From positions 1-50,458 of the IMG/VR virus record IMGVR_UViG_3300027985_001270: a stretch of 50,458 nt of DNA; one strand, written 5' to 3'. This DNA is from a virus (taxonomy: Duplodnaviria; Caudoviricetes). The position numbers were made by a program, and so were the translations under genes. The notes beneath the pieces are model-generated. The model made no database searches and was not told the DNA's origin. It saw only the letters and a program-made list of their open reading frames with translations. Below, piece after piece: positions 7,152-35,885 of this stretch. Position 1 is the stretch's first letter; each line of letters opens with the position of its first letter.

Positions 7152-7157
7152 TTATCC

Positions 7158-7186: not shown

Positions 7187-7267
7187 CCCCAACCGTCAAA
7201 TATTTCTTAACGTATTGAAAAATAACAAATTTACATTATATGCCTAATTGTTTAAGAATAAAAAGCC

Positions 7268-7296
7268 TTGACAAAAAGCGCCAAAAATGGTATAAT
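7268..7296 (+). promoter_or_regulatory. consensus sigma70 promoter at the strand switch
   Basis: TTGACA-17-TATAAT with extended -10 TG. Confidence 0.85.
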
Positions 7297-7350
7297 ATAA
7301 TAATAGAACGAGGCAATTTAAGTCAATAAAAAGAAAGAAACGGAGCCTAC

Positions 7351-7746
7351 ATGAGTAATTATAGCAGCAAAGAATTTAAAGAACTTCAACAGTTTTGGTA
7401 TAATAAACTAGCCGAATCAGGTTTTAACGACATAGAAGACTTTAGAATAGAGTACGGAAATCAATCTAATGATCATCTTAAACGTTCTTGTAAAGATTTA
7501 GCACGTAAATATAACCAAGACACTTTCCAACACTTCGCCGATTGCAGAAATTTTCTCTGCCACGGCTATTTCTCGTCCAAAATAGACAAATTTATCTTCA
7601 AAATGTACACAGAAGGGCTATCTCTACGTCAAATAGCTGAATTACTACCTGAAAAACAATCATACTTCTACGTTCACACAAAACTAAAGAAAATTAAATC
7701 TGACCTTAAAGCCTATTTGATCAAGGAATCCGAAGATGACAGATAA
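7351..7746 (+). CDS. sigma-region-4-like HTH protein (candidate late-gene activator)
   Basis: C-terminal FKMYTEGLSLRQIAELL...VHTKLKKI HTH; first gene of the late strand. Confidence 0.65.
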   Translation: MSNYSSKEFKELQQFWYNKLAESGFNDIEDFRIEYGNQSNDHLKRSCKDLARKYNQDTFQHFADCRNFLCHGYFSSKIDKFIFKMYTEGLSLRQIAELLPEKQSYFYVHTKLKKIKSDLKAYLIKESEDDR

Positions 7747-8059
7747 TAATCTTAACCTACCTAAACGTAAGTTAGTGAAATTACAGGAATCTGACGTAAC
7801 AGTAGTACCTCAAGTAGATACTCTCATCACTGACGCCTTATCGATCATAGGTGCTGAGCTTGCACATTATAGATCTAAGACCAAAAAAGGCATTAACCTG
7901 GATATGAAAGAGGCTCGTATAGTTCAATCTTATGTTGAAGCACTAGTTAAACTAAATAAAGAAGCTCGTGAAACAGCTAGACAAGAGGACTTAAGTAACC
8001 TAAGTAATGAAGAACTGCTACAACTAGCAGAAACACTAGTAGCGAATAATAACAAATAA
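7736..8059 (+). CDS. probable terminase small subunit
   Basis: Helical protein ending DLSNLSNEELLQLA, upstream of terL; mainly positional. Confidence 0.45.
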   Translation: MTDNNLNLPKRKLVKLQESDVTVVPQVDTLITDALSIIGAELAHYRSKTKKGINLDMKEARIVQSYVEALVKLNKEARETARQEDLSNLSNEELLQLAETLVANNNK

Positions 8060-8108
8060 ACATTAGCATAAAGATAAAAAAACCCTTAAGATAAACTGGG
8101 ACAGCAAA

Positions 8109-8297
8109 ATGAAAACAAAAGAACTCTGCAACGAAACCTACCGAGACCTATGTGCCGAACTAGGTCAATTACAACTTCAAAAAGACGCCTTAGACAAAAG
8201 AGCTGCCGAAATACTAGCTCAGATCACCCTTCTTAATGCTTTATCGCCCAAATTACAAACAATAGAAGCTTCATTAGAAGTAAACAAAAAGGACTAA
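8109..8297 (+). CDS. small coiled-coil protein
   Basis: ORF track. Confidence 0.6.
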   Translation: MKTKELCNETYRDLCAELGQLQLQKDALDKRAAEILAQITLLNALSPKLQTIEASLEVNKKD

Positions 8298-8299
8298 CA

Positions 8300-8788
8300 A
8301 TGAGCGAAAATCCCAACATCGGATCTAAATTTGAATCAACCCCACGTCCACCAGTACGCTTAAGGGTTGCAGTAGCCGAAGATATTAGCTTTATCTTCAA
8401 CTCCTGGCTTAAAAGTTATCGAAACTCAAACCAGGCTCATCTAGTATGTAACTCAATCTACTTCTCTGAGCAACACAAACTCATTGAAAGATTAGTTAAA
8501 GACTCAAAAGTTATAGTAGCCTGTAACAATGAAGACCCTACTCAACTATACGGCTACATCTGTGCTGGCAATATTGAAGGAATCTTCTGCCTACACTACC
8601 TTTATGTTAAACATAGCTTCAGAGGTTTAGGTATAGCAACAGCATTAATTAACGCTTTCGAACACGACGTTTCTTCTGCTGGAATCTTTACCCACATGAC
8701 AAAACCAATGGAACGTTTAGCAATAAGATTTAATCTAGTATATCATCCTTACATCCTTACTAACTACGTAAACAAAAAGGAGGAATAA
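8300..8788 (+). CDS. GNAT-family acetyltransferase
   Basis: LYVKHSFRGLGIATALI acetyl-CoA binding motif A. Confidence 0.85.
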   Translation: MSENPNIGSKFESTPRPPVRLRVAVAEDISFIFNSWLKSYRNSNQAHLVCNSIYFSEQHKLIERLVKDSKVIVACNNEDPTQLYGYICAGNIEGIFCLHYLYVKHSFRGLGIATALINAFEHDVSSAGIFTHMTKPMERLAIRFNLVYHPYILTNYVNKKEE

Positions 8789-9169
8789 GTGAGTATCAAA
8801 ATGACCCTCTCAATCAAAGGAACTGATTACGAGATACAAATCGTTTCAGATGCAGCCTATAAAAAACTACTTGGAAGTGGAAGCGCTGCACTAACAGATA
8901 GAGAGAACAAAGTAATGATATTTAACGAGAAGTTCATAACCGCTGGAACAGTTAGACACGAACTCCTTCATGCTATTTATGGTGAAACTCATGTAGAATC
9001 AGCTGACCTAGCTCCTGATGAAGTAGAAGAAATCTTTGCCTCAATAGTAGATTATCAATTTAATAACATAATCTTATGGACTGAACAAATATTAAACAAA
9101 GTGCTATCTAAGAATAACAAAAGTAAAACAAAGGACATTTATGAACGAGAACGAAATAAAAGAGCTTAA
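8789..9169 (+). CDS. HExxH metallopeptidase-like protein
   Basis: TVRHELLHAI...EE. Confidence 0.65.
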   Translation: MSIKMTLSIKGTDYEIQIVSDAAYKKLLGSGSAALTDRENKVMIFNEKFITAGTVRHELLHAIYGETHVESADLAPDEVEEIFASIVDYQFNNIILWTEQILNKVLSKNNKSKTKDIYERERNKRA

Positions 9170-9305
9170 AAAGAAACTAAAGGAACTGTCAAAGAACGAC
9201 CTCGTTCGTATGGTCCTTAAGTCTGCCACAATGGTTTCAGTATTAGAAAAAGTATGCAGTGATCTTAAAGAAGAAAATGACTCTCTTAAAAAAGGAAGCA
9301 ACTAA
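9141..9305 (+). CDS. small coiled-coil protein, 54 aa, not in ORF track
   Basis: MNENEIKELKKKLKELSKNDLVRMVL...; AAGGA RBS; stop overlaps the next ATG (TAATG). Confidence 0.6.
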   Translation: MNENEIKELKKKLKELSKNDLVRMVLKSATMVSVLEKVCSDLKEENDSLKKGSN

Positions 9306-10021
9306 TGAAACATTTAACCTTAGCAATTATGATCCTACTAGCACTAGCACTATCTTCATGTGAATCAGTTAGAGTACATAAAATAAAAAACGTTGTGCCA
9401 AACAAACCAGTTGAGGTAACTCTAACTACTAAAAACACTGTAAACATCATCGGAGAAGTAAATGAAGACTCTATGAGCAAAGCAGCTAAAGAACTAGCAC
9501 TCCTTAGAGCCAATAACCCAAAAGAAACTATCTATATCGTAGTAAACAGCCCAGGTGGATCAGTAACTGCAGGTATGAAATTCATTACATTCGCTAACGG
9601 CATAGACAACGTTAAAACTATCACAATCACTGCAATCTCTATGGGTTCAGCAATCGTAGAAGCTTTACCAGGAGAGAGACTAATAGTCCCTAATGCTACC
9701 TTTATGTTTCACAGAGCAGCAGGATCAGTAAGTGGATACTTTGATGGTGAAATAGAAACACGTTTAGCCTTCTATAAATCTTTAATAGGTGCCCTTGACA
9801 AATCAAATTCTGACCGTATTGGTATCCCACTAGAAGAATATAAAGCTAATGTACTACGTGAATGGTGGGCTTACGGAGACGAAGCAATTAAATTAAATAT
9901 GGCGGATAGAGTAGCTAAAGTAAAATGTAGTGTAGACCTAATTAAAGCAGAAGAAACTGTAATAGTAGCATCATTCTTTGGAGCATTCGAAAAGAAAATA
10001 TCTAAGTGCCCACTATTATAA
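9305..10021 (+). CDS. ClpP/crotonase-fold serine protease with lipoprotein signal peptide
   Basis: VNSPGGSV, AISMGS (Ser), FMFH (His), EA....MAD; N-terminal MKH-hydrophobic-LSSC lipobox. Confidence 0.85.
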   Translation: MKHLTLAIMILLALALSSCESVRVHKIKNVVPNKPVEVTLTTKNTVNIIGEVNEDSMSKAAKELALLRANNPKETIYIVVNSPGGSVTAGMKFITFANGIDNVKTITITAISMGSAIVEALPGERLIVPNATFMFHRAAGSVSGYFDGEIETRLAFYKSLIGALDKSNSDRIGIPLEEYKANVLREWWAYGDEAIKLNMADRVAKVKCSVDLIKAEETVIVASFFGAFEKKISKCPLL

Positions 10022-10096
10022 TAACAAATTTACATACTTATAGAGCAAAAAAACTTTATCGCCAAAATAAACAACGTAAACAAAAAGGACATTTAA

Positions 10097-10384
10097 ATGA
10101 GCCCCAAAATCAAAGCAGTTAAACTGTATCAAGCCGTCATCTTTGACAAACGATCTGAAACCTATTTCACAACTCTTCCAGTATCTAATAAAATCAGCCC
10201 AGAGATTAGATTGGTTATGGAAATAATGAGTATTGAAATTAAAAGTGCTTCAGAAACTATCTTAGTACCTATTACAAACGTATCCTGCATCTACTTAATG
10301 GACAACAGTGCTGACGATTACAAAGAGAACGTTAAGAAGATTAAAGCTGAAAAAGGCACACTAAAATCACAAGACATTAAATAA
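10097..10384 (+). CDS. hypothetical protein (Sm-like beta pattern, VPITNV)
   Basis: ORF with AAGGA RBS. Confidence 0.6.
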   Translation: MSPKIKAVKLYQAVIFDKRSETYFTTLPVSNKISPEIRLVMEIMSIEIKSASETILVPITNVSCIYLMDNSADDYKENVKKIKAEKGTLKSQDIK

Positions 10385-10392
10385 GCTTAATA

Positions 10393-11865
10393 ATGACCTT
10401 ATCAAAGAAACTAGCCATTATAGCAGAATTAAATAAAAGGAGATTGGAGACTGAAAAGCCTTCTTTCTCCTTCTATAACTTCGCCTTTGATAAGCAAATA
10501 GAATTCTTTAAAGACTCCGGTCCACGATTTAGAACCGCCGTATGTAGTCGTCGTGCTGGTAAAACTGTTGGAGTCGCAGCAGATCTTATAGATACCTGTC
10601 TAACAGAATCAAACGTAACCTGTCTTTACATAACCATAACAAAAGATAACGTTCGTCGAATAATCTGGGCAGATATTCAAAAGATCATAGAAGACTATAA
10701 AATCCCGTGCCGTATGAATAACCTCTTAATGGAAATAAAATTCCCTAACGGTTCTCGTATAATCACAGGTGGTTCTAAAGACAAATCAGAAATAGAGAAA
10801 TTCCGAGGCTTAAAGCTAAAAAAAGTATACATCGATGAGGTACAAAGTATGAGAGATCATATAAGAACCCTTATCGACGATATTATCATTCCCGCACTAA
10901 GAGACTTGCGAGGATCAATATACTTAATAGGTACCCCAGGTCCAGTAAAAGCAGGAGCCTTCTTTGACTATAGCCATAACCAAGAGTGGCATAACATTAA
11001 ATGGACAGCCTTTGATAATCCTCATATGCACAATCCAGAAAAAGGTCTGGACCTAGAGGAGACATTAAGAGAAGAGCGAAAACTAAGAGGGATTGACGAA
11101 AACGACGCTTCCTACCAACGTGAAACGTACGGAGCCTGGATAGAAGACACCGACTCTCTAGTAATTAAATATAATGAAGCTATTAACGACTATGATCACC
11201 TTCCTCCTAGTGACTTATTATATATAATGGGAGTAGATATAGGTTTCAACGACTCAGACGCTCTAGCAGTTCTAGCCTACTCAATGAAAACTAATGAAGT
11301 CTACCTCGTAGAAGAAGTTGAGAAAAATAAACAGGATATAACCGAACTAGCACACGAAATAAAAAGATTACAAGCCAAATATAAACCAGTTAAAATGGTC
11401 ATGGATGCCGGTGCCCTAGGTAAAAAGATCCAAGAAGAGTTAAGACTTAGGCACCAATTAGCCATTGATGCAGCAGATAAGAACCGTAAATTTGAATACC
11501 TTGAGTTCATGAACGCTGATTTACGCAAAGGAGTCTTAAAGGCTCATAAAGACAGTCTATTTGCCCAAGACTCAAAGCTAGTAACATGGGATAGATCCGA
11601 TAAAGAGAAGCTAAAAATATCGACTATATACCACTCAGATATCATGGATGCAGTATTATACGCTTACCGTGAATGTCGTCACTACTATAAAGAAGATGTA
11701 CGCATAACTCACGGCATCAACAGTAACGAATTCATGGATGAACTAGAAAGAAAAGAAGCTGAATCCCTACAACGTAAAGAAGAAAGTCTAGATACCTGGG
11801 AATATGAACAAATGCTTGACGAAGAATCAAGAGAGTTAAACGAATTTGGAGATGATTGGATATGA
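10393..11865 (+). CDS. terL: terminase large subunit
   Basis: Walker A SRRAGKT, Walker B YIDEVQ, GTP coupling motif, nuclease GVDIG and HSDIMDA. Confidence 0.95.
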   Translation: MTLSKKLAIIAELNKRRLETEKPSFSFYNFAFDKQIEFFKDSGPRFRTAVCSRRAGKTVGVAADLIDTCLTESNVTCLYITITKDNVRRIIWADIQKIIEDYKIPCRMNNLLMEIKFPNGSRIITGGSKDKSEIEKFRGLKLKKVYIDEVQSMRDHIRTLIDDIIIPALRDLRGSIYLIGTPGPVKAGAFFDYSHNQEWHNIKWTAFDNPHMHNPEKGLDLEETLREERKLRGIDENDASYQRETYGAWIEDTDSLVIKYNEAINDYDHLPPSDLLYIMGVDIGFNDSDALAVLAYSMKTNEVYLVEEVEKNKQDITELAHEIKRLQAKYKPVKMVMDAGALGKKIQEELRLRHQLAIDAADKNRKFEYLEFMNADLRKGVLKAHKDSLFAQDSKLVTWDRSDKEKLKISTIYHSDIMDAVLYAYRECRHYYKEDVRITHGINSNEFMDELERKEAESLQRKEESLDTWEYEQMLDEESRELNEFGDDWI

Positions 11866-12107
11866 ACATAAACGAAATTAAAGAACTTATTTTGTGGATG
11901 AAAGCCAATAAAGTTAGAAAGTTTAAAAATGCAGACTTTGACGCTGAACTATCTGATCTAGCCTTCATAGATGAATTAAATCAACCACTTACCTCACCAG
12001 ACAAAGTCAAAGAGTTCATCCCAGGAGGCTCTAACTCCTTAATGGATACAATGCAACCAATGTCAAAAGAGGAAGAAGACGAATTATTATACTGGTCAGG
12101 TAAATAG
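11856..12107 (+). CDS. hypothetical protein
   Basis: ORF between terL and portal. Confidence 0.6.
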   Translation: MDMNINEIKELILWMKANKVRKFKNADFDAELSDLAFIDELNQPLTSPDKVKEFIPGGSNSLMDTMQPMSKEEEDELLYWSGK

Positions 12108-12108
12108 A

Positions 12109-12137
12109 TTGACTAAATATAAGTAATATGATAGTCT
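12109..12137 (+). promoter_or_regulatory. sigma70-type promoter of the HNH gene
   Basis: TTGACT-17-TAGTCT with TG. Confidence 0.65.
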
Positions 12138-12153
12138 ATATTTAGGAGGGTTT

Positions 12154-12693
12154 ATGAGCAAGAAAATAGACATGGTAGGCAAGAAGATTGGTGATTGGAC
12201 AATAGTTAGCCAAGCTCATTCTACTAAAAATGGAACTATCCATTGGAATTGTATATGTAAATGCGGTCATAGAGGGATTGTAGCTGGAACAGATTTAAGA
12301 AAAGGAGAATCCTCATCTTGCAGAAAGTGTGGACATAAAAGAGCTGCTAATAAGATAAGAATTTATTCTACTAAAGAAGCAAAAGAAAGAAAATTATATA
12401 CTACTTTTAAAGCATCATCTAAATATAGGGATAAAAATAATAGTTTAAAATTAGAAGATTTCCTAAAATTAATAAGCAAAGAGTGTGAGTATTGTGGAGA
12501 AAAGCCCTTAAATGTGTCCCAACAAGGTTTAGTATATCAGGGAATAGACAGAGTAGATAATAAAAAAGGATATGAGATTGATAATGTAGTCCCTTGCTGT
12601 AAAATATGTAATAATGCTAAACATACGATGACAAAAGAAGAATGGGATTCTTGGAGACTTCGCCTAGCTAAAAAAACCTTAAATATCAAATAA
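12154..12693 (+). mobile_element. free-standing HNH homing endonuclease
   Basis: WNCICKCG, CEYCG, GIDRVDNKKGYEIDNVVPCCKICNNAK; own promoter; codon usage differs from flanks. Confidence 0.9.
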
Positions 12694-12785
12694 ATTCAAT
12701 ATCTTAAGCAAATCAAACATATATAAGCAATAACAAATATACATAAACGTAGATTATTAATATAAATATAACAAAAGGCTTATAT

Positions 12786-14705
12786 ATGACCGAATATTTG
12801 GGCTACACGGGAATTACAGAAAATGCAGGTTTACACTGGTGGTTAGAGGATGATCAAAACATCCACAACGCCGTTTTCGGACACGTTCAATACCTAACAA
12901 CCTCTCAAGCCTATAGATCCGTAGACAATATCCGCAACATGCGACTCTATGCTAACTATGACGTAGTAAGCCTAAGTAGTTATAATCATTCACGTGTAGA
13001 TAGCATGAACAACACTACCCACCGTGTAACCCTTAATGTCATTCAATCCATGATTGATACCGTAGTCTCAAAAATAACAAAAAACAAACCAAAACCAACC
13101 TTTCTAACTGACGGCGCTGACTGGGAACTACAACAAAAAGCTAAAAAACTAACCAAATTCTGTGAAGGTGTATTCTACGGTGCAAAAGTCTACCAAGAAG
13201 CGACTAAAGCCTTTATAGACGCTTGTATCTTTGGAACAGGAGCCGTTAAATTCTTTGCCTGTGATGGAGAAATTAAATGTGAGAGAGTTCTAATAGACGA
13301 AATTCTAACCGATGACGTTGAATCCTACTATGGAAAACCTAGAACCTTACATCAAACAAAGTTTATACACAAAGATATTCTTAAGGAAATGTTTCCTGGA
13401 AATGATCACCTTATAGATGAGGCAACAATCTATAATCCATCTAACTCTATTGGTGGTTACAATAAAAATAAACATATGGTTTTCGTAGTAGAATCCTGGC
13501 ACCTTCCTTCAGGAAAAAAAGCCAAAGACGGTAAGCATACAATCACCATATCAAACAAAACTCTCCTATCAGAATCTTATACAAAAGAATCTTTTCCTTT
13601 CATATTCTTAAAGTGGAATGAACGCCCAACCGGCTTTTTCGGTCAAGGTATTGCAGAAATGCTTACCGGTATCCAATTAGAAATGAATAAGATTTTGAAA
13701 ACTATCCAAATCTCTATGCACCTCGTCTCTGTACCTAAACTATTTGTTGAAGCAAGTTCTAAAATTGTAACCGCCCACTTAGACAATAAAATTGGTGGTA
13801 TTATAAAATATGCAGGTGTTAAACCAGACTATAGCCCACTTGGGGGCGTACCTCCTGAACTATTCCAACACCTAGAACGTCTATACACAAAAGCCTATGA
13901 AATAATAGGAGTTTCAAGTCTATCTGCACAAAGTCAAAAACCATCCGGACTTGATGCAGCCGTAGCCCTACGTGAATTTAACAACATAGAGTCTGAGCGC
14001 TTCATGTCTGTAGGAATCCGCTATGAACAAGCCTTCATGGACGCCTCATCTTTAATATTAAGTCTTGCAAAAGATCTATACGATCAAAACGGAGAGTTTA
14101 GCATTAAGGTTAAGGGTAATTCATTTATTGAAACCATTAACTGGGAAGATGTAAACATGGAAGACGATAAATACATGATGGAAGTATTTCCTACTTCAGC
14201 TCTAAGTAGCACACCAGCTGCACGCCTTCAAGACGTAACAGAACTTATGCAAGCGGGCTTTATATCTAAAGAAGACGGTATGAAACTGCTAGACTTCCCA
14301 GACCTTAAAGCTACTACTAACTTATATAACGCAGCCCTAGAAGATATAGAAATGACAATAGACCGTATGATGAGCAAAGGTGAATATCAACCACCTGAAG
14401 CCTATCAAAATCTATCACTCGGCATGACTAAAGTTCAGCAAGCCTATCTTCTAGCTAAAACCCAAAACGCTCCAGAAGAACGTCTAGAACTTCTCCGTCG
14501 CTGGGTTGAAGATGCATCTGCACTAATACAGAAAGCAACAGAAGCCGCAGTCCCTCCTGCCCCTGTTCCAGGGATGGAGGCTGCTGCCCCCCAAATACCA
14601 GGAGTTGAATCGCCAACTGCAGCCCCAACTGCAATACCCGAAGCAGCTCCTGTTTCTCCCTTAATGCCACTACCAGGAGCAGGAGAACCAGTACCCGGAG
14701 TTTAA
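12786..14705 (+). CDS. portal protein (P22-like) with Pro/Ala-rich tail
   Basis: Size, position, N....IDTVVSKI, GTGAVK, FPFI...W......FFG.GI motifs. Confidence 0.85.
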   Translation: MTEYLGYTGITENAGLHWWLEDDQNIHNAVFGHVQYLTTSQAYRSVDNIRNMRLYANYDVVSLSSYNHSRVDSMNNTTHRVTLNVIQSMIDTVVSKITKNKPKPTFLTDGADWELQQKAKKLTKFCEGVFYGAKVYQEATKAFIDACIFGTGAVKFFACDGEIKCERVLIDEILTDDVESYYGKPRTLHQTKFIHKDILKEMFPGNDHLIDEATIYNPSNSIGGYNKNKHMVFVVESWHLPSGKKAKDGKHTITISNKTLLSESYTKESFPFIFLKWNERPTGFFGQGIAEMLTGIQLEMNKILKTIQISMHLVSVPKLFVEASSKIVTAHLDNKIGGIIKYAGVKPDYSPLGGVPPELFQHLERLYTKAYEIIGVSSLSAQSQKPSGLDAAVALREFNNIESERFMSVGIRYEQAFMDASSLILSLAKDLYDQNGEFSIKVKGNSFIETINWEDVNMEDDKYMMEVFPTSALSSTPAARLQDVTELMQAGFISKEDGMKLLDFPDLKATTNLYNAALEDIEMTIDRMMSKGEYQPPEAYQNLSLGMTKVQQAYLLAKTQNAPEERLELLRRWVEDASALIQKATEAAVPPAPVPGMEAAAPQIPGVESPTAAPTAIPEAAPVSPLMPLPGAGEPVPGV

Positions 14706-14789
14706 ATAACAAAATTACATATATGTAAATGAGAAGCCTCGCTACTTTTAGAGGCGGCAATTATGCCAACAAGTAACTAAGGAGAATTT

Positions 14790-15713
14790 ATGTCAGATTT
14801 CATGGGTGCATTTAGCACCGAAAGTTCTATGGACGCATCAAACGGAGATATCTCAACAGGTGAAGCAGTAGTAAATGAACTAGCTGATAATCCAGAATCA
14901 GTAGAAGCAGAAGCTGAAGTAGTTGAAGAAGTAAAAAAAGAAGAACCTAAAAAAGAAGAAGATGCATTCAGCCGTAAATTTGCAGCACTAAGCAAAAAAG
15001 AGCGTCAGATCCGCCAGCGTGAACAACAACTTAACGCTAAAATGGCAGAATTAGAGGCAAAGTTAAAAGGATTAGAACCAAAAGAAGAAGTTAAGGCTCC
15101 TGTAATACCTATAGAAAAGAGATTACGAAGTAATCCTCTAGAAACCCTAAAAGATTTAGGATTAAGCTACGAGAAACTAACTGAACTAGCTCTTAATGAT
15201 GGGAAAATGTCAGTAGAAGATAGAATGGAACTTATGAGAGAAGAATTAGAAAGTGCTCATAAGTCAGAAATAGAAAAAATTAGAGAAGAACTACTAGAAA
15301 AAGAAAAGAAAACAGAACAAGAAAAATATGATGAAGTAATTCAAAATTTCATGGTCGAGCTTACGAGTTTTGTCAATAATACCGAAGATTATGAACTCAT
15401 CCGAGCAAATGATGCAGTTTCTCTGGTCTACGACGTTATTGAGCAACATCATGCGGAAACCGGTCGCATCTTGAACAACAAAGAAGCCGCTGACCTTGTC
15501 GAAGCCCACTTATTAGAAGAAGCACAAAAGCTCTTCAAGTTAAAAAAATTAGGTGCCATTAGGGCTCCTGAGGTTTCTAAAAAGCCAGAATCGAAACCAT
15601 TATCGCCAACGCTTTCAAACAGTAGTGCCCAAACTATGTCAGATAAGACTAGTAAATTGATGGATGACAGTGAACTTAAAAAGGCTGCAGCATCACTACT
15701 TAAATGGGATTAA
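14790..15713 (+). CDS. capsid scaffolding protein
   Basis: Acidic N-terminus, long coiled coil, lies between portal and capsid. Confidence 0.75.
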   Translation: MSDFMGAFSTESSMDASNGDISTGEAVVNELADNPESVEAEAEVVEEVKKEEPKKEEDAFSRKFAALSKKERQIRQREQQLNAKMAELEAKLKGLEPKEEVKAPVIPIEKRLRSNPLETLKDLGLSYEKLTELALNDGKMSVEDRMELMREELESAHKSEIEKIREELLEKEKKTEQEKYDEVIQNFMVELTSFVNNTEDYELIRANDAVSLVYDVIEQHHAETGRILNNKEAADLVEAHLLEEAQKLFKLKKLGAIRAPEVSKKPESKPLSPTLSNSSAQTMSDKTSKLMDDSELKKAAASLLKWD

Positions 15714-15767
15714 TTATTAACTTTATTTATTTATTTATTTATTTTTTAAATTAACACGGAGATTTTT

Positions 15768-16973: not shown

Positions 16974-16985
16974 TTTTCAATAATG

Positions 16986-17012: not shown

Positions 17013-17123
17013 CCCCTCCACTTTAATCAAATAACAATTCTACATCATTAATAGTCTAAAAGTCTATTCTTTGAAGTTATTTATTGTACTTAGTTATAAC
17101 TATCAACCTATAGGCTCATCAAT

Positions 17124-17312
17124 ATGAAAAAAATAATCAAAAAAATAACTCTAGGTCAAGCCATTGCTCTCATAGATGGTGATAAAAAATTTGATTACCT
17201 ACTAGAAAATTACCTAACAGAAAAGAACTATTCAATAAAAACAATACCTTACATAAACTGGATCAAATTCGTAGAGAATTACTATAAAGTAGAAATAACA
17301 AATATACCCTAA
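17124..17312 (+). CDS. hypothetical protein, 62 aa
   Basis: ORF track; weak RBS; bracketed by two late motifs. Confidence 0.45.
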   Translation: MKKIIKKITLGQAIALIDGDKKFDYLLENYLTEKNYSIKTIPYINWIKFVENYYKVEITNIP

Positions 17313-17387
17313 TAGGACATTAAGTCCTAATAACAACAGTAGGCTCTTCCATTGCCGGATGAGACTAAATTAAACTAGGAGTTTACC

Positions 17388-19963: not shown

Positions 19964-20530
19964 ATGATAGTATATAAAATAGAGCATAAAATAATAAAAA
20001 AAGTTTATATTGGTAGAACCAATAGAAAATTATTAGCTAGGGTCTGGCAACATATAAGAGATCATTCTCCAATAGGAAAAGCAATAACAGATTTAGGGAT
20101 AGAGAATTTTGATTTTCAAGTAGTTTTTACTTCTGATTGTGTGGAGCAAATAAAACAAAAAGAAGCAGAATTAATTTTATCCTACAACTGTATTCACCCA
20201 AATGGATATAATCAGGAATATGGGAAAGATAATTTAACAGGAATTAATTTAAATTTTGATAAAAATACCAAAAATTGGAAGTTAAGAACTACTAGAGATA
20301 AAAAAAGAATAACCTTGGGTTCATTTCATAGTAGAGAGGAAGCATTAGAATACTATGATTATTGTTTAAAAGTGGATAAGTGGGATCTTTATAAGATACC
20401 TAGAGTATCTAAGTTTAAAAATAATAAATTTAGATTAAGAGTTTGGGATGGCAAAAAAAGAGTATATTTAGGGATATTTAAAACAAAAGAAGAGGCTTTT
20501 AACTTTTACAGGAAGAAAATATATGGCTAG
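19964..20530 (+). mobile_element. GIY-YIG homing endonuclease with two AP2-like DNA-binding repeats
   Basis: IVYKI...VYIGRT..R..QH, PNGYN; KRITLGSFHSREEA and KRVYLGIFKTKEEA. Confidence 0.85.
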
Positions 20531-25452: not shown

Positions 25453-25506
25453 TTAAAATAACACTTTTACCCTTATAGGGAATAATTACAAAAAGGGGCT
25501 TTTTTC

Positions 25507-26783: not shown

Positions 26784-26804
26784 AAATCAAAAAAGGAACT
26801 AAAT

Positions 26805-29345: not shown

Positions 29346-31680
29346 TAACATTAAATCTCCTGAACAAATAGCCTTAGATTTTGAGGCAGAACAAAGTGCG
29401 CCAGCCAACGAGGCTAAGCCAGTTATAGAAACAACTGAACCCTCTGCAGAGGACATTGCAGCCGTAGAAGAAGATATTGCACGTGAAAAAAAATATGGTG
29501 GACAGCCAGTAAAAGCAGCACTAGCAGGTGCCGCTCGTGGTTTAACATTTGGTATTTCTGACCAAGCTTTAGTTAAATCAGGTTTAGTAGATCCTCAAAC
29601 TCTACGTGAACTAGAAGAAAGAAATAAAGCAGCTTCAGTAACTGGAGAGGCAGCAGGTGTTGTACTACCATCAATAGCCACTCTAGGTGCAACTGCCCCA
29701 GTATCAGCTGCAGGCGTAGCCGTTCGTGGAGCCGCAGCAGCAGGAAAAGCAGTTGAAGAATTAACAGCCAAAAGTCTAGGCAAGTTAATAACTCAAACAG
29801 GTAATAAAAAACTAGCAACCGAAATACTAAAAAAATCTCTTCCAAAAGTAGCAGGTTCTGCAGTAGAAGGTGGCTTTTATGGAGCCGGTCAACTAATCAG
29901 TGAAGACGCACTAGGAACTCAAGAATTTAACGCAGAAAATCTTCTTGCTTCAGTAGGAACTGGAGCAATAATTGGAGGTCTAGCAGGTGGAGCATTTGGA
30001 TCCCTAGAAGCTATCGTACCTACAGTAAAAAAAGGTGGAGCGCTATCAGTTGGAAAAGGTAAAGCCTATCTAGATCCAGAAACCGCAGCTCTAGAACTAT
30101 CAGGATTATCTCCAGCAAAAATAACAAAAATGAGACAGGTTAATCCTCAACTAGTTAAAGACCTACCAGAATTTTATCGTAAAGAGGCAGAACTAGGATT
30201 ATTAACTACAGATAGAAAATTAACTGAAGTAGTATCAAACATTAAAGAAAAAGCCGGACAAGAAATAGGAAATATATTAAAAAAAGTAGAAGATGTTTCT
30301 GCACGTGCTCCAGAAATTCTTCCAACTAAAAAGTCTATATATACAAAAATAATTTCTGACCTTGATGAAAACTTTTTAAATAAATATAAAAACGTACCAG
30401 AATACGCTGATAAACTAGCTCCAATTCGTAAAATACGTAACTCATACAATGAACTCGCTTCAAGTGCTGAAGGCGTATTTAAACCCATAGAATTAAATAA
30501 TTTAAGAAAAGAGTTAGATGCAGTAATTAAATACGATAAAATACCTGGAACTATATCTTTGGCAGAAAAAGCCAACAAAGGGACACGTAACATTCTTAGA
30601 AATGAGATAGATACCATCGCTGATAAAGCATCTCAAAACACAAATCTAGCAGATGAACAAAGTCTATTTAATCAATTAAAAGAACAAAATAAACGATTTA
30701 GTATTGCAACTACAATCCTCCCCCACCTTGAAGGTAAACTAGATAAACAAAAACTTTTTAACAACATGGATATGTTAAAAGGTGCTGGTCTAATAGGTGT
30801 CCTTCATGAAACTGGTGCAGCAATTGCTGCAGGAATGAAACTAGCGGAATCTGACATTGCTCGCCGTTTTAAAATTCTAACCCAAATAGAAAAAACTAAT
30901 CAAAAGGTATCAAAAGATATTAATAAATCTGTTAAAGATTATATAAAACTTCCTAAAAAAGCAGCAGTTCCAACATCAGTTAACATCTTAATGAACACTG
31001 CATACGGAAGAGAAAATATAGACGGAAAAAAACCAAACTCAAAACTTGAAGCATTTAAAAATATGCAAACTAATTTTTCTAATATAAAGAAAGATCCAGA
31101 TGCATTATTTGATAAAATGAATATCAACACATTAAGATTATCAAAACATGCTCCCAATACATTTACCGCTATAACTGGCAACATAATGAACGCCATGACA
31201 TTTCTACAAGAAAAAATGCCAAAAGACCCCCGTCAACAAGGCGCTTTTGACTTCCGTCGTGCTCCCTGGGAACCATCTTCAACTCAACTAGCAAAATTCG
31301 AACGCTACGTTGAAGCAGTTGAGCATCCATTAAATATCCTAAAAGACATAGAAAGTGGCAGTGTCAGCCCAGAACAAGTAGAAACTCTAGCAACAGTATA
31401 TCCAGACTTATATAGTAGAATTCAAAGAGAAGTAATGGATCAGATAACCACAAGTAATGAACCTGTTCCATACTCAAAAAGACTACAATTAGGATTACTA
31501 TTAAACATTCCCACTGACTCCTCTCTTAATGGTCCTGCAATCGCTCAATTACAAACTGCATTTGCACCCGTACAAGAACAAACACAATCATCCATTCCAG
31601 GATCAAATATAGGTAAATTAGACGTTGCTGACATATCAACCCAAATAGAAAAAGTACAAACTAGAAACAATAAAGCATAA
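29335..31680 (+). CDS. large internal virion / ejection protein
   Basis: GAARGLTFG.SD, Gly/Ala-rich segments, helical C-half. Confidence 0.7.
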   Translation: MESNNIKSPEQIALDFEAEQSAPANEAKPVIETTEPSAEDIAAVEEDIAREKKYGGQPVKAALAGAARGLTFGISDQALVKSGLVDPQTLRELEERNKAASVTGEAAGVVLPSIATLGATAPVSAAGVAVRGAAAAGKAVEELTAKSLGKLITQTGNKKLATEILKKSLPKVAGSAVEGGFYGAGQLISEDALGTQEFNAENLLASVGTGAIIGGLAGGAFGSLEAIVPTVKKGGALSVGKGKAYLDPETAALELSGLSPAKITKMRQVNPQLVKDLPEFYRKEAELGLLTTDRKLTEVVSNIKEKAGQEIGNILKKVEDVSARAPEILPTKKSIYTKIISDLDENFLNKYKNVPEYADKLAPIRKIRNSYNELASSAEGVFKPIELNNLRKELDAVIKYDKIPGTISLAEKANKGTRNILRNEIDTIADKASQNTNLADEQSLFNQLKEQNKRFSIATTILPHLEGKLDKQKLFNNMDMLKGAGLIGVLHETGAAIAAGMKLAESDIARRFKILTQIEKTNQKVSKDINKSVKDYIKLPKKAAVPTSVNILMNTAYGRENIDGKKPNSKLEAFKNMQTNFSNIKKDPDALFDKMNINTLRLSKHAPNTFTAITGNIMNAMTFLQEKMPKDPRQQGAFDFRRAPWEPSSTQLAKFERYVEAVEHPLNILKDIESGSVSPEQVETLATVYPDLYSRIQREVMDQITTSNEPVPYSKRLQLGLLLNIPTDSSLNGPAIAQLQTAFAPVQEQTQSSIPGSNIGKLDVADISTQIEKVQTRNNKA

Positions 31681-31692
31681 AAGGAATAAAAA

Positions 31693-32022
31693 ATGAGACT
31701 ATTTAACGATACAATCCTAAGTGAATCAGCAGCTACAGAAGATAAAACCAGTGAAGTTGTAACTCTTGGATTCGTTCAAGATATCGCAATCCAAATCATC
31801 TGGACATCAACTACCTGCGCAGGTTCTATACTAACTCAAGTAAGCAACGACGGTACAAACTGGGTATCTTTAAGTACACACACAAAAACAGTAAACGATA
31901 ATAGTGGAAATGAAATGGTAGTAATATCAGACGCAAATTACGCATACGTAAGAGTAATGTTTGACTTTACCTCCGGCTCACTAACTACTCTTAATGTAAT
32001 AATAAACGGAAAAGGTCTATAA
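31693..32022 (+). CDS. small beta-sandwich virion protein, paralog A
   Basis: DIAIQ...G....QVSNDGTNW...YVRV shared with the next gene. Confidence 0.6.
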   Translation: MRLFNDTILSESAATEDKTSEVVTLGFVQDIAIQIIWTSTTCAGSILTQVSNDGTNWVSLSTHTKTVNDNSGNEMVVISDANYAYVRVMFDFTSGSLTTLNVIINGKGL

Positions 32023-32081
32023 TAACAAAATTACATATATATACCTAATCCCAAAAGGATTTAACCTATAAGGAGGTTCCA

Positions 32082-32432
32082 ATGTCAGCTCGGAAAAATG
32101 TCATTCTTCCCCACAAACTTATTGACGCTCACGCTCTAGACGACAGTTTCGTCTCAGATCCAGTTAACGTCCAATATCTAGACAATATTGCAATCCAACT
32201 GCAAGTAACTACAACTGCAAATACAGGAGTTTTTACAGTTCAAGCATCTATTGACGGAAACGTCTACGATACTTTAACTCTAAGCCCTACCATTCCAGCT
32301 CTAGCAGATGCTGATACAGTAATTAGTATTAACCTAAACCAAGTTCCATATACCCTAATAAGAGTAGCATTTACAATCGGAACAGGAACAGATGGCTCAG
32401 TAACTGGCTTTATTACAGCTAAGGAGATCTAA
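32082..32432 (+). CDS. small beta-sandwich virion protein, paralog B
   Basis: NIAIQ...G...VQASIDG....IRV. Confidence 0.6.
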   Translation: MSARKNVILPHKLIDAHALDDSFVSDPVNVQYLDNIAIQLQVTTTANTGVFTVQASIDGNVYDTLTLSPTIPALADADTVISINLNQVPYTLIRVAFTIGTGTDGSVTGFITAKEI

Positions 32433-32433
32433 C

Positions 32434-35400
32434 ATGACTGAATATAAATATGGTGGTAGTGGAGCCGGTGGCTCAGCTTCATGGAAAGATGCAGTAAATA
32501 CATATAGTGATCTACCAGTAGGTAGCTCCGTAGGTGAAACTCGTTTAGTAATAGATACAGAAGAACTATATACCTGGGACGGATCAGCCTGGGTTTTAAT
32601 GACTTCTACAAGTTCAGTTTCAGGTCCAGCATCCTCAACAGATAACGCCATTGCACGCTACGATAGCACAACTGGTAGAATAATTCAAGATTCTCTAGTT
32701 ACTATAGATGATTCTGGTAACGTCATAATTCCAGGAAATTTAAGAGTTAACGGAACTGAAACAATAGTAAATACAGAAACTCTTGAAGTTAAAGACCCTA
32801 ATATAACAGTAAATTCTGGAGGAGATGACACTACAGCAGAAGGTGCAGGCTTAACAGTAGAAAGAACTGGTACCAACGGATCTCTAATATACGAAAACGC
32901 TCTAACTTCTAAATTTAAACTAGGTGCTCTAGGATCAGAAGTAGAAGTAGCAGATATATCCTCAACTCAAACCCTTACAAATAAAGTTATAGATGTAGAC
33001 TCTAATACCGTATCTAATATTGAAGTAGATAATTTAAAAGCTGGTGTACTTGATACTGATATAGAAACCACTTCAGCATCAGACGATACCATCCCATCTG
33101 CTCTAGCAGTAAATACACAATTTCTTAGACTTGGAGAAAGAACAAAAGAGCCAACAGGCTTCCCAAATAGAACTGATTCCACAATATCAATATCCACAGA
33201 TCAATTCACAATCGAGCCATCATCCACCTCCTTTGATTATTACATTCACGGTGTAAAATATACAAAATCATCTGCGGATACTATCACAATACCAGACACA
33301 GAAGGTTTACATTACGTATATTATAATGGCTCCACCTTAATATCTTCTACAACAATGTCTAAAACAGTTCTTACTGATTATGCAATAGTAGCAGTAATAT
33401 ACTGGAATGCAACTGACAATGTAGCCTTATACATGGGAGATGAACGCCACAGCACAGTAATGGATGGCGCAACTCACTACTACCTTCACGACACAGTAGG
33501 TACAGTATTTCATGAAGGATTAGCACTTAGCAACTTCTCCATAGACGGAACAGGATCTTCAGATCTAGATGCTCAATTTGACTCCTCTGAAGGAACAATC
33601 TTTGATGAAGACTTATCACACACCGTAGATGCAACAACTGCAGGTTCATCTGACATTCCTATATTCTATAAATCAGGTGTAAACGGATACTGGAAACTAG
33701 ACGCTCCAACAGGTTTTGTAGCAAAACGTTATGGAACTTCACGTCTTGCGTATAACCAATACACTGGCGGAACCTGGCAACAAACAGAAGTAGACGATCT
33801 AAGATACGTCCTAACTCACCTTTATGCTACTAATGATACTACCTATAAATTAATAGCTGTACAAGGTCAAAGTACATATATTAACATTATCACAGCACGT
33901 CAAGGCGCCATAGAAGAAATAAACAATATAAATCTTTCAGGAATGGCATTTGCTGAATTTACTCCCATAGCTTCCATAATTTTCCAAACTGCAGACGCTT
34001 ATACAAATACAATTAAAGCAAGAATACGCAGTACAGATACTGGTGATAATTATGTAGATTTTAGAGGAGCAAGCCTCTCTCCATCAATTAATGCAGTAGA
34101 TCACGGCAACCTTGCTGGTCTTCTAGATGATGATCATCCTCAATACGCACTTCTTACTGGTAGAACAGGAGACGCATTAAGTATTGACAATGTAACAGAA
34201 TTTACCTCTGATGCCGGAGTTACTATAGAATCCTCCCTCCTTAAAGATGGAGAAATTACAACAGGTCAAGGTTTAGAACTTGAAAAAATGACCAGCATAG
34301 GATTAAGTACCGCTTTAATATCTGGTGGTGAAGTTACAATAAACGTAGACACTACTAAATTTGACGTCAGTGCTGGTAGTGGTATAGTAATTGATGCACA
34401 CACAGATCCAGAAAATCCAGTTTATACTGAAGTTTCATGGTCTGCCTTCACAGCACAAACAGTAACAAACCTAGCAACTAGTGCAGCCACTTTCTTAGGA
34501 ATTGACAGTACTGGATCCATAGTACAAACCACTTCAGACTTTACAAATGAACAAAGAAGAGACTACATCCAAATAGGCTCTCTACAGCATCCAAATTTAA
34601 CCTCTATTTCTGGAATTGTTCAATCTTCTAATCCAGTATTAAACACTGCAGCCGCACTAAAAGACTTCTCAAGAGCAATTGGTGCCGTAATCGAAGGTGC
34701 TCAATTTAGTGCTAACGGAGCAAATGTAAAAATAGACCGGTCTGCAGCTACATCATTCTTCTACGGAAGTAATTTTAGAAATAGTGTTAAAAATCCACAT
34801 GAATTAACAACCTCAGCAGAAACTGCAGTTACATTCGTTCACGTTTACAGAAACGGATCTGGTGGCTTTACAGTAACTACTCCAACTACAGATTTAGATA
34901 TTGCTCATTATGACAATGGTACTGGAACTCTTGCAGCCGTTCCTGCATCTGATCCATATCAAATTTTCAGATTCTTCTACGTAGCCTCTTCTAATCTAGT
35001 AGTTGTGCACTATGGTCAAGCAATATACAAATCCCTCTCAGTTGCAGTAGGATCTATTCAAAGTGAAGAATTTGACAAAGCTGCTCTACTTACTAACTCT
35101 CCACTAAGAACATGGCTTGTAGTAGAAAGAACAGTAACAGACATAGCCTCTGCAGTAACAGCAGGAACAGCTAGATTCATCGCAGCCGGTAAATTTGGAG
35201 ATTCAACAACCTCTTCAGCCTCTACTTCTACTACAGATCTTCAAACTGCCTACAACAACAGTTCAGAACCTGAAATAGTTCTAACATCAACTAGAGGCGC
35301 ATTAAGTATACAAGATGCAGACACACCAATAGGAGCAAATTTATTTGAAGTATCTGATTATGGTAAAACTACTGATTACCTAGCAGTATCCTCAAGCGGT

Positions 35401-35805
35401 ATCACCCTTTCTTCAGGTGTAACAGTTAACAGCATCCTAGATGATGACACCCTATCTGCAGATTCAGCAACAGCCCTAGCAACTCAGCAATCTATAAAAG
35501 CCTACGTGGATAACCACTCTGCTGGTATTGATATAGAGTCAAAATCTGCCTCTTTTAACGCAGCTGATGGTATTACCTACCTAGTAGACACTACCTCAAC
35601 AGCCATTGCTGTACAACTACCTACTCCAGCTCTAAACATCTCAATAACAATAAAAGATTCAGGCTTTAACGCTAATGCTAATAACATAACACTAGTTAGA
35701 GCAGCATCAGAGAATATTGAGGGCGTAGCAGCTACGTACACCATCGACTCTTCAGGTGCCTCAGTCGTAATCGTATCCGACGGTACAGACTGGTTCTTAT
35801 TATAG
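32434..35805 (+). CDS. tail fibre protein
   Basis: GPASSTDNAIARYD, GNL.V.GT.T.VNT..L.V.D, DHG.L.GL.DDDHPQY, LATQQSIKAYVD fibre motifs. Confidence 0.8.
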   Translation: MTEYKYGGSGAGGSASWKDAVNTYSDLPVGSSVGETRLVIDTEELYTWDGSAWVLMTSTSSVSGPASSTDNAIARYDSTTGRIIQDSLVTIDDSGNVIIPGNLRVNGTETIVNTETLEVKDPNITVNSGGDDTTAEGAGLTVERTGTNGSLIYENALTSKFKLGALGSEVEVADISSTQTLTNKVIDVDSNTVSNIEVDNLKAGVLDTDIETTSASDDTIPSALAVNTQFLRLGERTKEPTGFPNRTDSTISISTDQFTIEPSSTSFDYYIHGVKYTKSSADTITIPDTEGLHYVYYNGSTLISSTTMSKTVLTDYAIVAVIYWNATDNVALYMGDERHSTVMDGATHYYLHDTVGTVFHEGLALSNFSIDGTGSSDLDAQFDSSEGTIFDEDLSHTVDATTAGSSDIPIFYKSGVNGYWKLDAPTGFVAKRYGTSRLAYNQYTGGTWQQTEVDDLRYVLTHLYATNDTTYKLIAVQGQSTYINIITARQGAIEEINNINLSGMAFAEFTPIASIIFQTADAYTNTIKARIRSTDTGDNYVDFRGASLSPSINAVDHGNLAGLLDDDHPQYALLTGRTGDALSIDNVTEFTSDAGVTIESSLLKDGEITTGQGLELEKMTSIGLSTALISGGEVTINVDTTKFDVSAGSGIVIDAHTDPENPVYTEVSWSAFTAQTVTNLATSAATFLGIDSTGSIVQTTSDFTNEQRRDYIQIGSLQHPNLTSISGIVQSSNPVLNTAAALKDFSRAIGAVIEGAQFSANGANVKIDRSAATSFFYGSNFRNSVKNPHELTTSAETAVTFVHVYRNGSGGFTVTTPTTDLDIAHYDNGTGTLAAVPASDPYQIFRFFYVASSNLVVVHYGQAIYKSLSVAVGSIQSEEFDKAALLTNSPLRTWLVVERTVTDIASAVTAGTARFIAAGKFGDSTTSSASTSTTDLQTAYNNSSEPEIVLTSTRGALSIQDADTPIGANLFEVSDYGKTTDYLAVSSSGITLSSGVTVNSILDDDTLSADSATALATQQSIKAYVDNHSAGIDIESKSASFNAADGITYLVDTTSTAIAVQLPTPALNISITIKDSGFNANANNITLVRAASENIEGVAATYTIDSSGASVVIVSDGTDWFLL

Positions 35806-35885
35806 TAATAAAATCAGTAACTTAGCTAAGGACGGCTATTTTACTTCCTTATTCAACTAAAAGCAAATAACAAAAGAGCATATAT

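Follow-up and report, generated by a model that had tools for sequence, protein, structure and literature searches.

A contiguous motif of about 21 bp occurs ten times on the + strand of the Caudoviricetes genome IMGVR_UViG_3300027985_001270, each time ahead of a co-oriented gene, and on sequence grounds the ten copies very probably function as promoters. We lean toward the view that these late promoters are read by the host RNA polymerase together with a phage factor, the leading candidate for which is P0001, the predicted 131-amino-acid (aa) product of the open reading frame (ORF) at 7351 to 7746. The narrower claim that P0001 is the actual specificity determinant is a tentative one. The window (i.e., the whole stretch of DNA that was analyzed) is the complete IMG/VR virus record (50,458 bp; 35% G+C content; linear ends; completeness estimate, 93%), the 5' end of which truncates a primase/helicase-like ORF.

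Ten copies of one motif ahead of late genes

In this genome, an early arm for replication and a late arm for the virion diverge at 7151/7351. Genes on the - strand (1 to 7151 and 39455 to 50458) encode a DNA polymerase A (746 aa; the largest ORF of the early strand), a RecB-type exonuclease, a MazG-like pyrophosphatase, an endonuclease VII, and numerous small unknown proteins. Genes on the + strand (7351 to 39480) encode a ClpP-like head protease, the large terminase, the portal, the major head protein, a tail fiber, a holin, and a 1,419-aa protein whose C-terminal part is amidase-like. Our scripts modeled genes by greedy ORF calling; the window gave no match in an Rfam scan and none in a tRNA scan.

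A sequence-only reading of the window had listed ten + strand sites with the pattern ATAACA-N5-RCMY, and all ten are present on that strand at exactly the positions it gave. The pattern has 11 exact matches in the window, all on the + strand and including these ten, compared with a mean of 1.14 ± 1.15 (maximum, 4) in 100 dinucleotide-preserving shuffles, none of which reached 11. The reversed pattern, used as a control, gave one forward match and no reverse match. The eleventh match (45880) lies within the - strand DNA polymerase gene and is probably due to chance, since it scored <10 bits with a 23-nucleotide (nt) weight matrix. This matrix was built from, and tested on, the same ten sites, so their own scores (19.9 to 25.7 bits) are inflated; the informative part is the empty gap below them, as the next + strand site (20421, inside a homing-endonuclease gene) scored 11.6 bits and no - strand site reached 10 bits. 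A seed-and-count search that was blind to the reported pattern, in which for each intergenic 15-mer the other intergenic 15-mers with ≤3 mismatches were tallied, returned the late motif as the top family in all intergenic DNA.

The fuller consensus, A-ATAACA-AAwwT-ACAT-nn-aTA, is a single contiguous block and is longer than the pattern first described. An A precedes ATAACA in all ten copies, and AA follows it in 9/10 and 8/10. The bases T-A-C at motif positions 11 to 13 are found in 8/10, 9/10, and 10/10 copies, A-T at positions 14 and 15 in 8/10 each, and T-A at positions 19 and 20 in 7/10 each. Conservation is limited to positions -1 to +20, with none upstream or past position 21. The hexamer ATAACA alone is not special: it occurs 57 times on the + strand and 8 times on the - strand, mostly as Ile-Thr codons on an A-rich strand. 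A full-text literature check that was narrow in scope and addressed the motif only, since the P0001 family has no searchable name, found no paper on ATAACA as a phage late promoter.

The placement and orientation of the copies are also those of promoters, as the earlier reading had proposed. Noncoding DNA accounts for 1,765 of the 32,329 nt (5.5%) of the late region (7152 to 39480), and eight of the ten sites lie essentially within it; together with the absence of - strand sites in the matrix scan, this means that the motif is not equally common in coding DNA or on the opposite strand. Of the other two, site 8049 covers the final 12 nt of ORF 7736-8059 and site 17295 covers 19 nt at the 3' end of a putative 62-aa ORF (17124-17312). 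All ten sites stand 49 to 160 nt ahead of a co-oriented start codon (Table 1), site 7222 being in the divergent junction, and several copies begin 0 to 6 nt after the preceding stop codon. The hairpin that follows the major head gene (-16.5 kcal/mol) is itself followed by the copy at 17031, in a terminator-then-promoter arrangement. The copy at 14706 is the one best kept in relatives. The gene blocks named in the sequence-only reading are borne out in part: PHROGs matches support the terminase, portal, major head protein, and tail fiber, and the decoration and ejection labels gained no support from any library.

Table 1. Motif copies, the + strand sigma70-type promoter, and the candidate regulator gene in the window
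Feature	Position	Strand	Gap to next + strand start codon (nt)	Context	Matrix score (bits)
Copy 1, site 7222 (AATAACAAATTTACATTATATG)	7221..7242	+	129	Divergent early/late intergenic region, upstream of the sigma70-type promoter of 7351-7746	22.0
Copy 2, site 8049	8048..8069	+	60	Over the stop of ORF 7736-8059; ahead of ORF 8109	21.4
Copy 3, site 10021	10020..10041	+	76	Right after the head-maturation-protease gene; ahead of 95-aa ORF and large terminase	25.0
Copy 4, site 12730	12729..12750	+	56	Ahead of portal gene	23.3
Copy 5, site 14706	14705..14726	+	84	Right after the portal stop; ahead of scaffold-position ORF and major head gene	25.7
Copy 6, site 17031	17030..17051	+	93	After 10-bp terminator-like hairpin 3' of the major head gene	19.9
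Copy 7, site 17295, ACCC variant	17294..17315	+	93	Ahead of ORF 17388; followed by conserved leader hairpin and GAGACTAAA	24.0
Copy 8, site 25458, ACCC variant	25457..25478	+	49	Ahead of block of 415-, 846-, and 781-aa ORFs	21.4
Copy 9, site 32022	32021..32042	+	60	Ahead of ORF 32082 and 1,123-aa tail-fiber gene	25.5
Copy 10, site 35867, GCAT variant	35866..35887	+	160	Ahead of 616-aa ORF with C1q-like domain	21.0
Sigma70-type promoter, TTGACA-17-TATAAT with TG	7268..7296	+		Sole 12/12 match on the + strand; drives 7351-7746	
P0001, 131 aa	7351..7746	+		Candidate late specificity factor/activator; N-terminal FxxLQxxWYxKLxxxGFxDIE, C-terminal sigma-region-4/LuxR-type helix-turn-helix (HTH)	

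Conserved leaders lie just downstream of two copies. The leader at 17340 to 17387, before the gene of a product starting MANRNFH, consists of a short hairpin starting GCTC or GCTG, then (G)AGACTAAA, and then a Shine-Dalgarno sequence. It is also found 3' of the capsid gene in L030, L041, L047, L050, L072, L080, and other loci of relatives, in several of which it abuts the capsid terminator and leaves no space for a promoter. The leader of the scaffold gene (14736 to 14789) contains a small hairpin (GGCA-AUUA-UGCC type) followed by AAcAAGyAA ahead of the Shine-Dalgarno sequence. This possible translational operator or processing site is kept in most relatives, even with a differing promoter-like motif.

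Promoter class, register, and the candidate factor

The motif fits neither the sigma70 nor the sigma54 promoter class, in agreement with the earlier reading. Column counts revealed no conserved hexamer 16 to 18 nt downstream of ATAACA or TTTACA, and a scan with the sigma70 consensus gave 9/12 at one of the ten sites (25458), while real promoters of the same genome score 12/12. Despite a similar hexamer-N5-tetramer layout, the GG at -24 and GC at -12 that define sigma54 promoters (TGGCAC-N5-TTGC, used with an enhancer-binding ATPase) are absent from both blocks in all ten sites, and library scans of the window ORFs returned no AAA+ activator. The motif is a single block with no -35 element, as in the late promoters of the T4 gp55 or phiEco32 gp36 type, and its first seven bases align with TATAATA in some relatives. 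Further candidates were compared by eye and rejected for want of a conserved partner element: a sigma70-type -10 at 17 nt from ATAACA, a -35-like reading of TTTACA, and the consensus sequences of extracytoplasmic function (ECF) sigma factors, sigma28, sigmaE/K, and Bacteroidota.

Searches for a dedicated transcription apparatus were likewise negative. No RNA polymerase or sigma family was recognized among 64 ORFs compared with PHROGs, and the long ORFs contain no DxDxD; when all six frames were searched for DxDxD, the metal site of two-barrel polymerases, only four chance matches appeared, in short contexts. The T7-type polymerase family PF00940 was found in 0/5 records (the window and four relatives that are 99 to 100% complete), a search in which the control genomes were also silent, so that its sensitivity is uncertain. 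The sigma region 2 family Sigma70_r2 was found in 0/5 records at E values up to 10, with the control positive in 11/14 genomes. Scans of the window ORFs in PHROGs gave no gp55 or gp33 family match, no sliding-clamp gene was identified, and library scans returned no NusG/RfaH-like or Q-like protein. On the polymerase searches above, with silent controls for PF00940, the motif is probably not a T7-type promoter. A search of public sequencing runs for the phage listed DNA runs and no RNA run.

Early transcription has a more familiar appearance. On the - strand, 4928 to 7186 carries five near-identical TTGAC(A/T)-16/17-TATGCT promoters, mostly with an extended TG, and a perfect 12/12 sigma70-type promoter lies at 46694 to 46666. 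Because the early promoters are canonical and repeated, the host sigma should be conventional and the late motif should be something else. The sole + strand counterpart (Table 1) stands 55 nt ahead of gene 7351-7746 and 46 nt past the motif copy at 7222. Placed behind both a perfect host promoter and a motif copy, this gene has the wiring expected of a positive late-class regulator. The five early promoters resemble a repeated promoter cassette ahead of small early genes.

In the register that we prefer, AATAAC is a deviant -10 element (consensus, TATAAT) and transcription would start 7 nt downstream at the A of ACAT; AATAAC would then occupy -12 to -7, AAAwwT would form the discriminator, and A-C-A-T would be +1 to +4. 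The single-element promoters of T4 (gp55) and phiEco32 (gp36) have this same geometry. The -10 assignment is supported by four loci of relatives (L029, L081, L016, and L027, the last with TGTTATAAT), which carry the sigma70 -10 consensus at the aligned place, i.e., T-ATAAT-A where the window has A-ATAAC-A. In L072, L029, L015, and L047, the motif starts 28 to 29 nt before the start codon and has GGAG at motif positions 17 to 22. Were transcription to begin some 22 nt into the motif, the ribosome-binding site would be lost, whereas a start at the A of ACA, the one favored here, would retain it. Every one of the ten copies deviates from the -10 consensus at -12 and -7, which would keep the unmodified host enzyme from using these promoters, as a late promoter requires. 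An alternative register takes the TATAG-like sequence at positions 17 to 22 as lying just ahead of the start, in T7 fashion. As a third possible reading, a DNA-binding protein may contact the two ACA-containing halves as direct half-sites; no LuxR-type arrangement known to us has their spacing of 8 bp.

P0001 matched no Pfam, PHROG, or NCBIfam model at threshold. The sub-threshold HTH matches were HTH_38 (E = 0.019) and Sigma70_r4_2 (E = 0.22; 11.6 to 12.6 bits against a Pfam cutoff of 25.7), the latter being the sole Sigma70_r4_2-like stretch across the five records. Compared with RinA/ArpU, P0001 has no match in NCBIfam even at E = 10, with HTH_Cbp1 (E = 0.056) the only model listed. The HTH proposed in the sequence-only reading is thus visible by fold and stays below every curated family threshold. 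An AlphaFold model built on a 150-sequence alignment (predicted local distance difference test [pLDDT] score, 90.5; predicted template modeling [pTM] score, 0.71) shows four helices in residues 55 to 131, and these superpose on LuxR-type DNA-binding domains and sigma region 4. The matches include the EsrB DNA-binding domain (Z = 8.9; root mean square deviation, 1.2; 58 aa), DesR (Z = 8.4), Fusobacterium nucleatum sigma-H (3mzy; Z = 8.2 to 9.0; 73 to 75 aa), sigma-28 (Z = 7.9), sigma-L (Z = 7.4 to 8.0), SigR region 4 (Z = 7.4 to 7.9), and sigma-E region 4 on -35 DNA (Z = 7.3 to 7.5). About half of the 50 fold matches listed are sigma factors, and ESM Atlas neighbors carry Sigma70_r4, GerE, or HTH_38; Foldseek lists are rich in sigma factors, and this was not counted alone as evidence. 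A PDB profile search returned a designed repeat protein (E = 0.00087), an inclusion-membrane protein (E = 0.39), and EsrB (E = 1). On the basis of the predicted model, we regard the fold class (sigma-region-4/LuxR-type HTH) as established.

The family is large. A profile search of 1.84 billion cluster representatives (clusters of 50% identity) retrieved 3,276 at E ≤ 0.001 and 1,631 at E ≤ 1e-10. The best 150 members match no Pfam or PHROG family in number; the top family, "Recombinase," was hit by 6/150 via the HTH part, and 1/150 matches Sigma70_r4_2 (E = 0.00046). In a ten-sequence alignment, W16, Y17, L20, F25, D27, and E29 are invariant within the N-terminal FxxLQxxWYxKLxxxGFxDIE, and the homologues share a C-terminal segment, G-x-S-x-R-x-I...YSxFWVxxxLKKLK. 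Searches of the relatives' ORFs with phmmer found P0001 homologues at the same location, followed by P0002; peptide patterns found no homologue, and a word search found P0001 itself only. The neighbor P0002 (7736 to 8059, + strand; 107 aa) is conserved far better than P0001 in relatives (E values down to 4e-34), ends in DLSNLSxEELLxLA, and may act together with P0001 or serve in packaging. A role as a sigma-region-2 analogue was considered and rejected, as the sequence of P0002 looks coiled-coil.

On this basis, we propose the following sequence of events. Early in infection, the host polymerase with its primary sigma would read the - strand promoters and the promoter at 7268 to 7296, and P0001 would build up. 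P0001, alone or with a partner, would then enable the host polymerase to open the ten AATAACA-N5-ACAT promoters, either by replacing or repositioning sigma region 4 or by binding the motif directly and recruiting the enzyme. T4 gp33 and AsiA/MotA act by the former route, i.e., by replacing or repositioning sigma region 4. The terminase, portal, scaffold/capsid, tail, and fiber blocks would be switched on by the ten promoters, and the copy at 7222 would drive 7351-7746 itself, giving positive feedback. Past the highly expressed capsid gene, the hairpin would end one transcript and a new promoter would follow. It is also conceivable, although we consider it doubtful, that P0001 founds a widespread class of minimal promoter-specificity factors that combine a region-4-like domain with a short conserved N-terminal module and have no region 2; the FxxLQxxWYxKLxxxGFxDIE module would then dock on the host core polymerase or the host sigma.

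Evidence from relatives and rival explanations

The phage belongs to a lineage without close cultured members. Megablast with 20 kb of the window gave no cultured phage match, and a search of 50,697 cultured-phage records with the capsid, portal, and P0001 found nothing meaningful, the portal having a single match at 22.5% identity. A tblastn search of cultured phages with P0001 and the family member P0004 gave no match. The DNA polymerase is 44% identical to the enzyme of Flavobacterium jumbo phages. In IMG/VR, 172 stretches hold capsid relatives, and several of the contigs measure 49 to 57 kb; the capsid loci described here are 80 kept of these 172, with a capsid identity of 49 to 73% (loci of relatives bear L numbers). 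A host lead comes from one 3.7-kb contig, with a capsid gene 74% identical, that was binned in a Bacteriovoracaceae metagenome-assembled genome.

In the 80 capsid loci (934 kb), the exact pattern occurs 16 times on the + strand and 3 times on the - strand, and the window's matrix has two matches at ≥14 bits in relatives. The 527 unique intergenic regions of relatives contain a relaxed form, ATAAYA-N5-ACA, 23 times, compared with 3.3 ± 2.2 (maximum, 11) in dinucleotide-shuffled sequences; these regions are mutually related, and the 23 are not independent events. The pattern AYAATA-N5-ACA overlaps the test pattern and is invalid as a control. The relaxed motif was counted 36 times on the + strand and once on the - strand of the relatives' intergenic DNA, an asymmetry that is partly due to base composition, since A-rich hexamers dominate the + strand; hence we relied on shuffle controls. 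By orthologous position, it lies upstream of the scaffold gene in 14/60 unique regions (shuffle mean, 1.1; maximum, 4), the portal in 3/50 (1.3), the 95-aa ORF in 2/19 (1.0), ORF 17388 in 3/57 (0.6), and P0002 in 3/14 (0.5). L015, whose capsid is 70% identical, has four copies of TATAACA-N5-AAC-AATATAA, three of them ahead of the 95-aa ORF, the portal block, and the scaffold gene and the fourth (2580) after P0002. L037 has three copies of a different motif, AATATAGAGTAATA, at such junctions. Bare ATAACA in L037, L068, L040, and L018 is mostly within coding DNA, and whole-sequence 9-mer counts in relatives were uninformative. An exact-motif scan of IMG/VR (AATAACAAANNTACAT) returned at least 115 stretches; among the 80 loci listed there was a single match per contig, and these were dismissed as chance rather than kin phages.

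Two complete relatives have repeated sequences of their own. In G005, 4518 to 4746 (L092) contains eight iteron-like copies of TAAAATCTGTTTAC in 230 bp, and a 23-bp tandem array lies apart from them at 47573 to 47712 (L094). Both may function as origins or in packaging, and no counterpart of either was seen in the window. On the - strand of G001 (L089-L091), 13 early genes have a near-identical translation-initiation region, (A/G)GGATTAACATGA, and these regions are much more uniform than usual Shine-Dalgarno contexts.

Several observations weigh against host-polymerase promoters governed by P0001. The register is one that we infer, and we know of no sigma70-family factor that favors C at -7. 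Clear enrichment by orthologous position is confined to the region ahead of the scaffold/capsid operon; most relatives lack a multicopy motif, and the four complete relatives have none. Covariation of P0001 and the motif was looked for in relatives and not found, and L037 and L068 have the recognition helices nearest to that of the window, yet their motif is AATATAGAGTAATA. Among 80 P0001-family loci, which were found using the ten-sequence alignment, no + strand site reaches 12.3 bits with the window's core matrix, and the best match (15.1 bits) is on the - strand. In L216, the locus of the nearest P0001 homologue (49% identity), the genes diverge as in the window and the homologue's gene is preceded by a TGnTATACT promoter, but the 5 kb available contain only two half-matching ATAACAAT elements. 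The P0001 family adjoins a strand switch (i.e., has a divergent upstream neighbor) in only 8/60 loci. As for the protein, Z scores of 8 to 9 for a small helical domain are possibly generic, per the tool's caution, and Foldseek matches of P0001 in PDB and BFVD all have E > 0.2. P0001 has no detectable sigma region 2 and its N-terminal residues 1 to 54 match nothing; it therefore cannot be called a sigma factor, and that label is not established. The phage may encode a very divergent sigma region 2.

The four rival explanations that we weighed each account for some of these features. A host alternative sigma could read the motif with no phage factor, in which case P0001 would have another role, for example as the small terminase or in binding the pac site. 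The searches revealed no phage sigma, the missing covariation would be expected, P0001 heads the packaging/structural module, and its HTH resembles the G20C small terminase DNA-binding domain (Z = 6.6 to 7.7; 50 aa). However, the motif fits no consensus familiar to us (sigma28, sigma54, ECF, and sporulation sigmas) and lacks two blocks, the HTH of P0001 is C-terminal whereas that of small terminases is N-terminal, and a conserved 95-aa ORF already sits right before the large terminase gene. Moreover, the motif differs between close relatives at the same junctions (L037, L015, and the window), and since it turns over at fixed junctions, a coevolving phage factor fits better than a fixed host sigma. 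We consider this explanation unlikely. A phage RNA polymerase is very unlikely. A contiguous block of about 21 bp ahead of each late operon is what class III promoters of the T7 type classically look like; the end of several copies reads TTATAGGG, TAATAGGA, or TTATAGAG, like the TATAG(G) start of T7 and SP6; and a single-subunit enzyme might be encoded in the missing 7% or so of this 93% complete record (in which the primase/helicase-like ORF is cut at the 5' end) or go unrecognized among the 846-, 781-, and 1,419-aa proteins, three large late proteins without a family. The PF00940 search, with its silent controls, was nevertheless negative in four relatives of 99 to 100% completeness and the same gene order, and the ORFs showed neither a polymerase family among the 64 compared with PHROGs nor, in the long ORFs, DxDxD. 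The largest early-strand ORF is a DNA polymerase, the large unassigned proteins lie downstream of the promoters they would need to read, and relatives have TATAAT at the same place.

We give slightly less credence still to an action of the motif in RNA, as a ribonuclease processing site or as an antitermination or pause signal in long late transcripts. The 0-to-6-nt distance of several copies from the upstream stop recalls the intercistronic processing sites of T7, the late genes of many relatives follow in succession with no recognizable promoter, and copies 14706 and 17295 are each followed closely by a conserved leader hairpin. Yet the copy at 7222, in the divergent junction, precedes all of the known + strand promoters, and + strand RNA is not expected there, so that an RNA-acting element would lack a transcript; in addition, the motif itself has no secondary structure, the window has no Rfam match, and neither a NusG/RfaH-like nor a Q-like protein was found in it. 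Hardly credible, finally, is a DNA site unconnected with transcription, for instance a strand-specific nick, known from T5- or phiKMV-like phages, or a site used in replication or packaging. The restriction of the copies to one strand and the asymmetry, length, and good conservation of the motif would suit such a site; however, a DNA site would have no reason to avoid coding DNA, yet eight of ten copies fall in the noncoding 5.5% at 49 to 160 nt before genes, and they are dispersed over 29 kb, unlike the clustered iterons of G005.

Other genome features and comparison with known systems

The GC skew is -0.3 to -0.5 at 1 to 7000 and 40000 to 50458, where the genes are on the - strand, and near zero in the late arm; the AT skew is positive nearly all along the window. 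The early arm includes a 298-aa ORF (41346 to 42242, - strand) that resembles an SbmA/BacA-like inner-membrane transporter (Pfam E = 2.5e-24), an unusual cargo for a lytic-looking phage. Nuclease genes of the HNH, GIY-YIG, and endonuclease VII types lie at 12154 to 12693 (+), 19964 to 20530 (+), 42233 to 42817 (-), and 39455 to 39925 (-), two of them inserted within the late arm. The best PHROG match of ORF 12154 is endonuclease VII (E = 1.9e-18), with weaker matches to "decoy of host sigma70" (E = 3e-9) and "Srd anti-sigma factor" (E = 2.7e-7). A lysine-rich ORF of about 46 aa (MDKIKKVMHEWKKGKLKSSSGEKV...; 37985 to 38125, + strand) lies in the 251-nt gap after the 616-aa gene; it falls below the 60-aa cutoff of our ORF listing.

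The class III promoters of the T7 group have a contiguous consensus of about 20 bp before each late block, often right after the preceding stop codon. The window is similar in having such a block repeated before late gene blocks, often after a stop codon, and differs in that a single-subunit phage RNA polymerase, which the T7 group needs, was found neither in it nor in its complete relatives. Parallels are provided by phiEco32, for which the published account describes six gp36-dependent promoters with a single element, tAATGTAtA, and starts 6 to 8 bp downstream, late genes opposite to the early genes, and a relative, 7-11, with a different motif and a diverged sigma (PMC8948821). phiEco32 and the window share one block with no -35 element in many copies before late operons (six there and ten here), late genes opposite to early genes, early genes on host sigma70, and a motif that differs among kin; the turnover of the motif at fixed positions in our relatives mirrors phiEco32 compared with 7-11 (PMC8948821). 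The sigma-family protein of phiEco32 has region 2 and no region 4, whereas the reverse is true of our candidate; the element sequences are unrelated, and the starts were mapped in phiEco32, whereas we infer them here (PMC8948821).

The late promoters of T4 (TATAAATA; gp55, gp33, and the gp45 clamp; PMC2988020) are likewise -10-only and use the host core enzyme with small phage proteins, gp33 sitting on the beta flap where sigma region 4 would otherwise be. Unlike P0001, as proposed, T4 gp33 does not bind DNA, and unlike the T4 element, the block in the window is longer (about 21 bp) and has a conserved ACAT. The RinA/ArpU/Ltr activators of Gram-positive temperate phages resemble P0001 in size (about 130 to 140 aa) and in having their gene just ahead of the packaging genes, and they are reported to be required for switching on the late operon (PMC3753634, PMC3152322). 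As described there, those phages have one regulated promoter before terS, whereas the window has ten (PMC3753634, PMC3152322).

Multicopy phage-specific late promoters and the appropriation of sigma are already known. What is new here is the motif sequence, a lineage without a cultured relative, the lack of a recognizable sigma region 2 or polymerase, and a large unnamed candidate family. To our knowledge, the known mechanisms of late-promoter reprogramming are a handful, all from cultured phages. In the present phage, a clean regulon of ten copies is paired with one candidate regulator, which is well placed and belongs to a very large family without a name in Pfam or PHROGs. If P0001 is not the switch, the motif still gives an operon map for this phage group. 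If P0001 is the switch, thousands of "hypothetical" phage genes would gain a function, and a new way of capturing the host RNA polymerase would be recognized. Should P0001 also prove to found a class of such factors, its 3,276 clusters would place it among the commonest late-switch devices of uncultured tailed phages.

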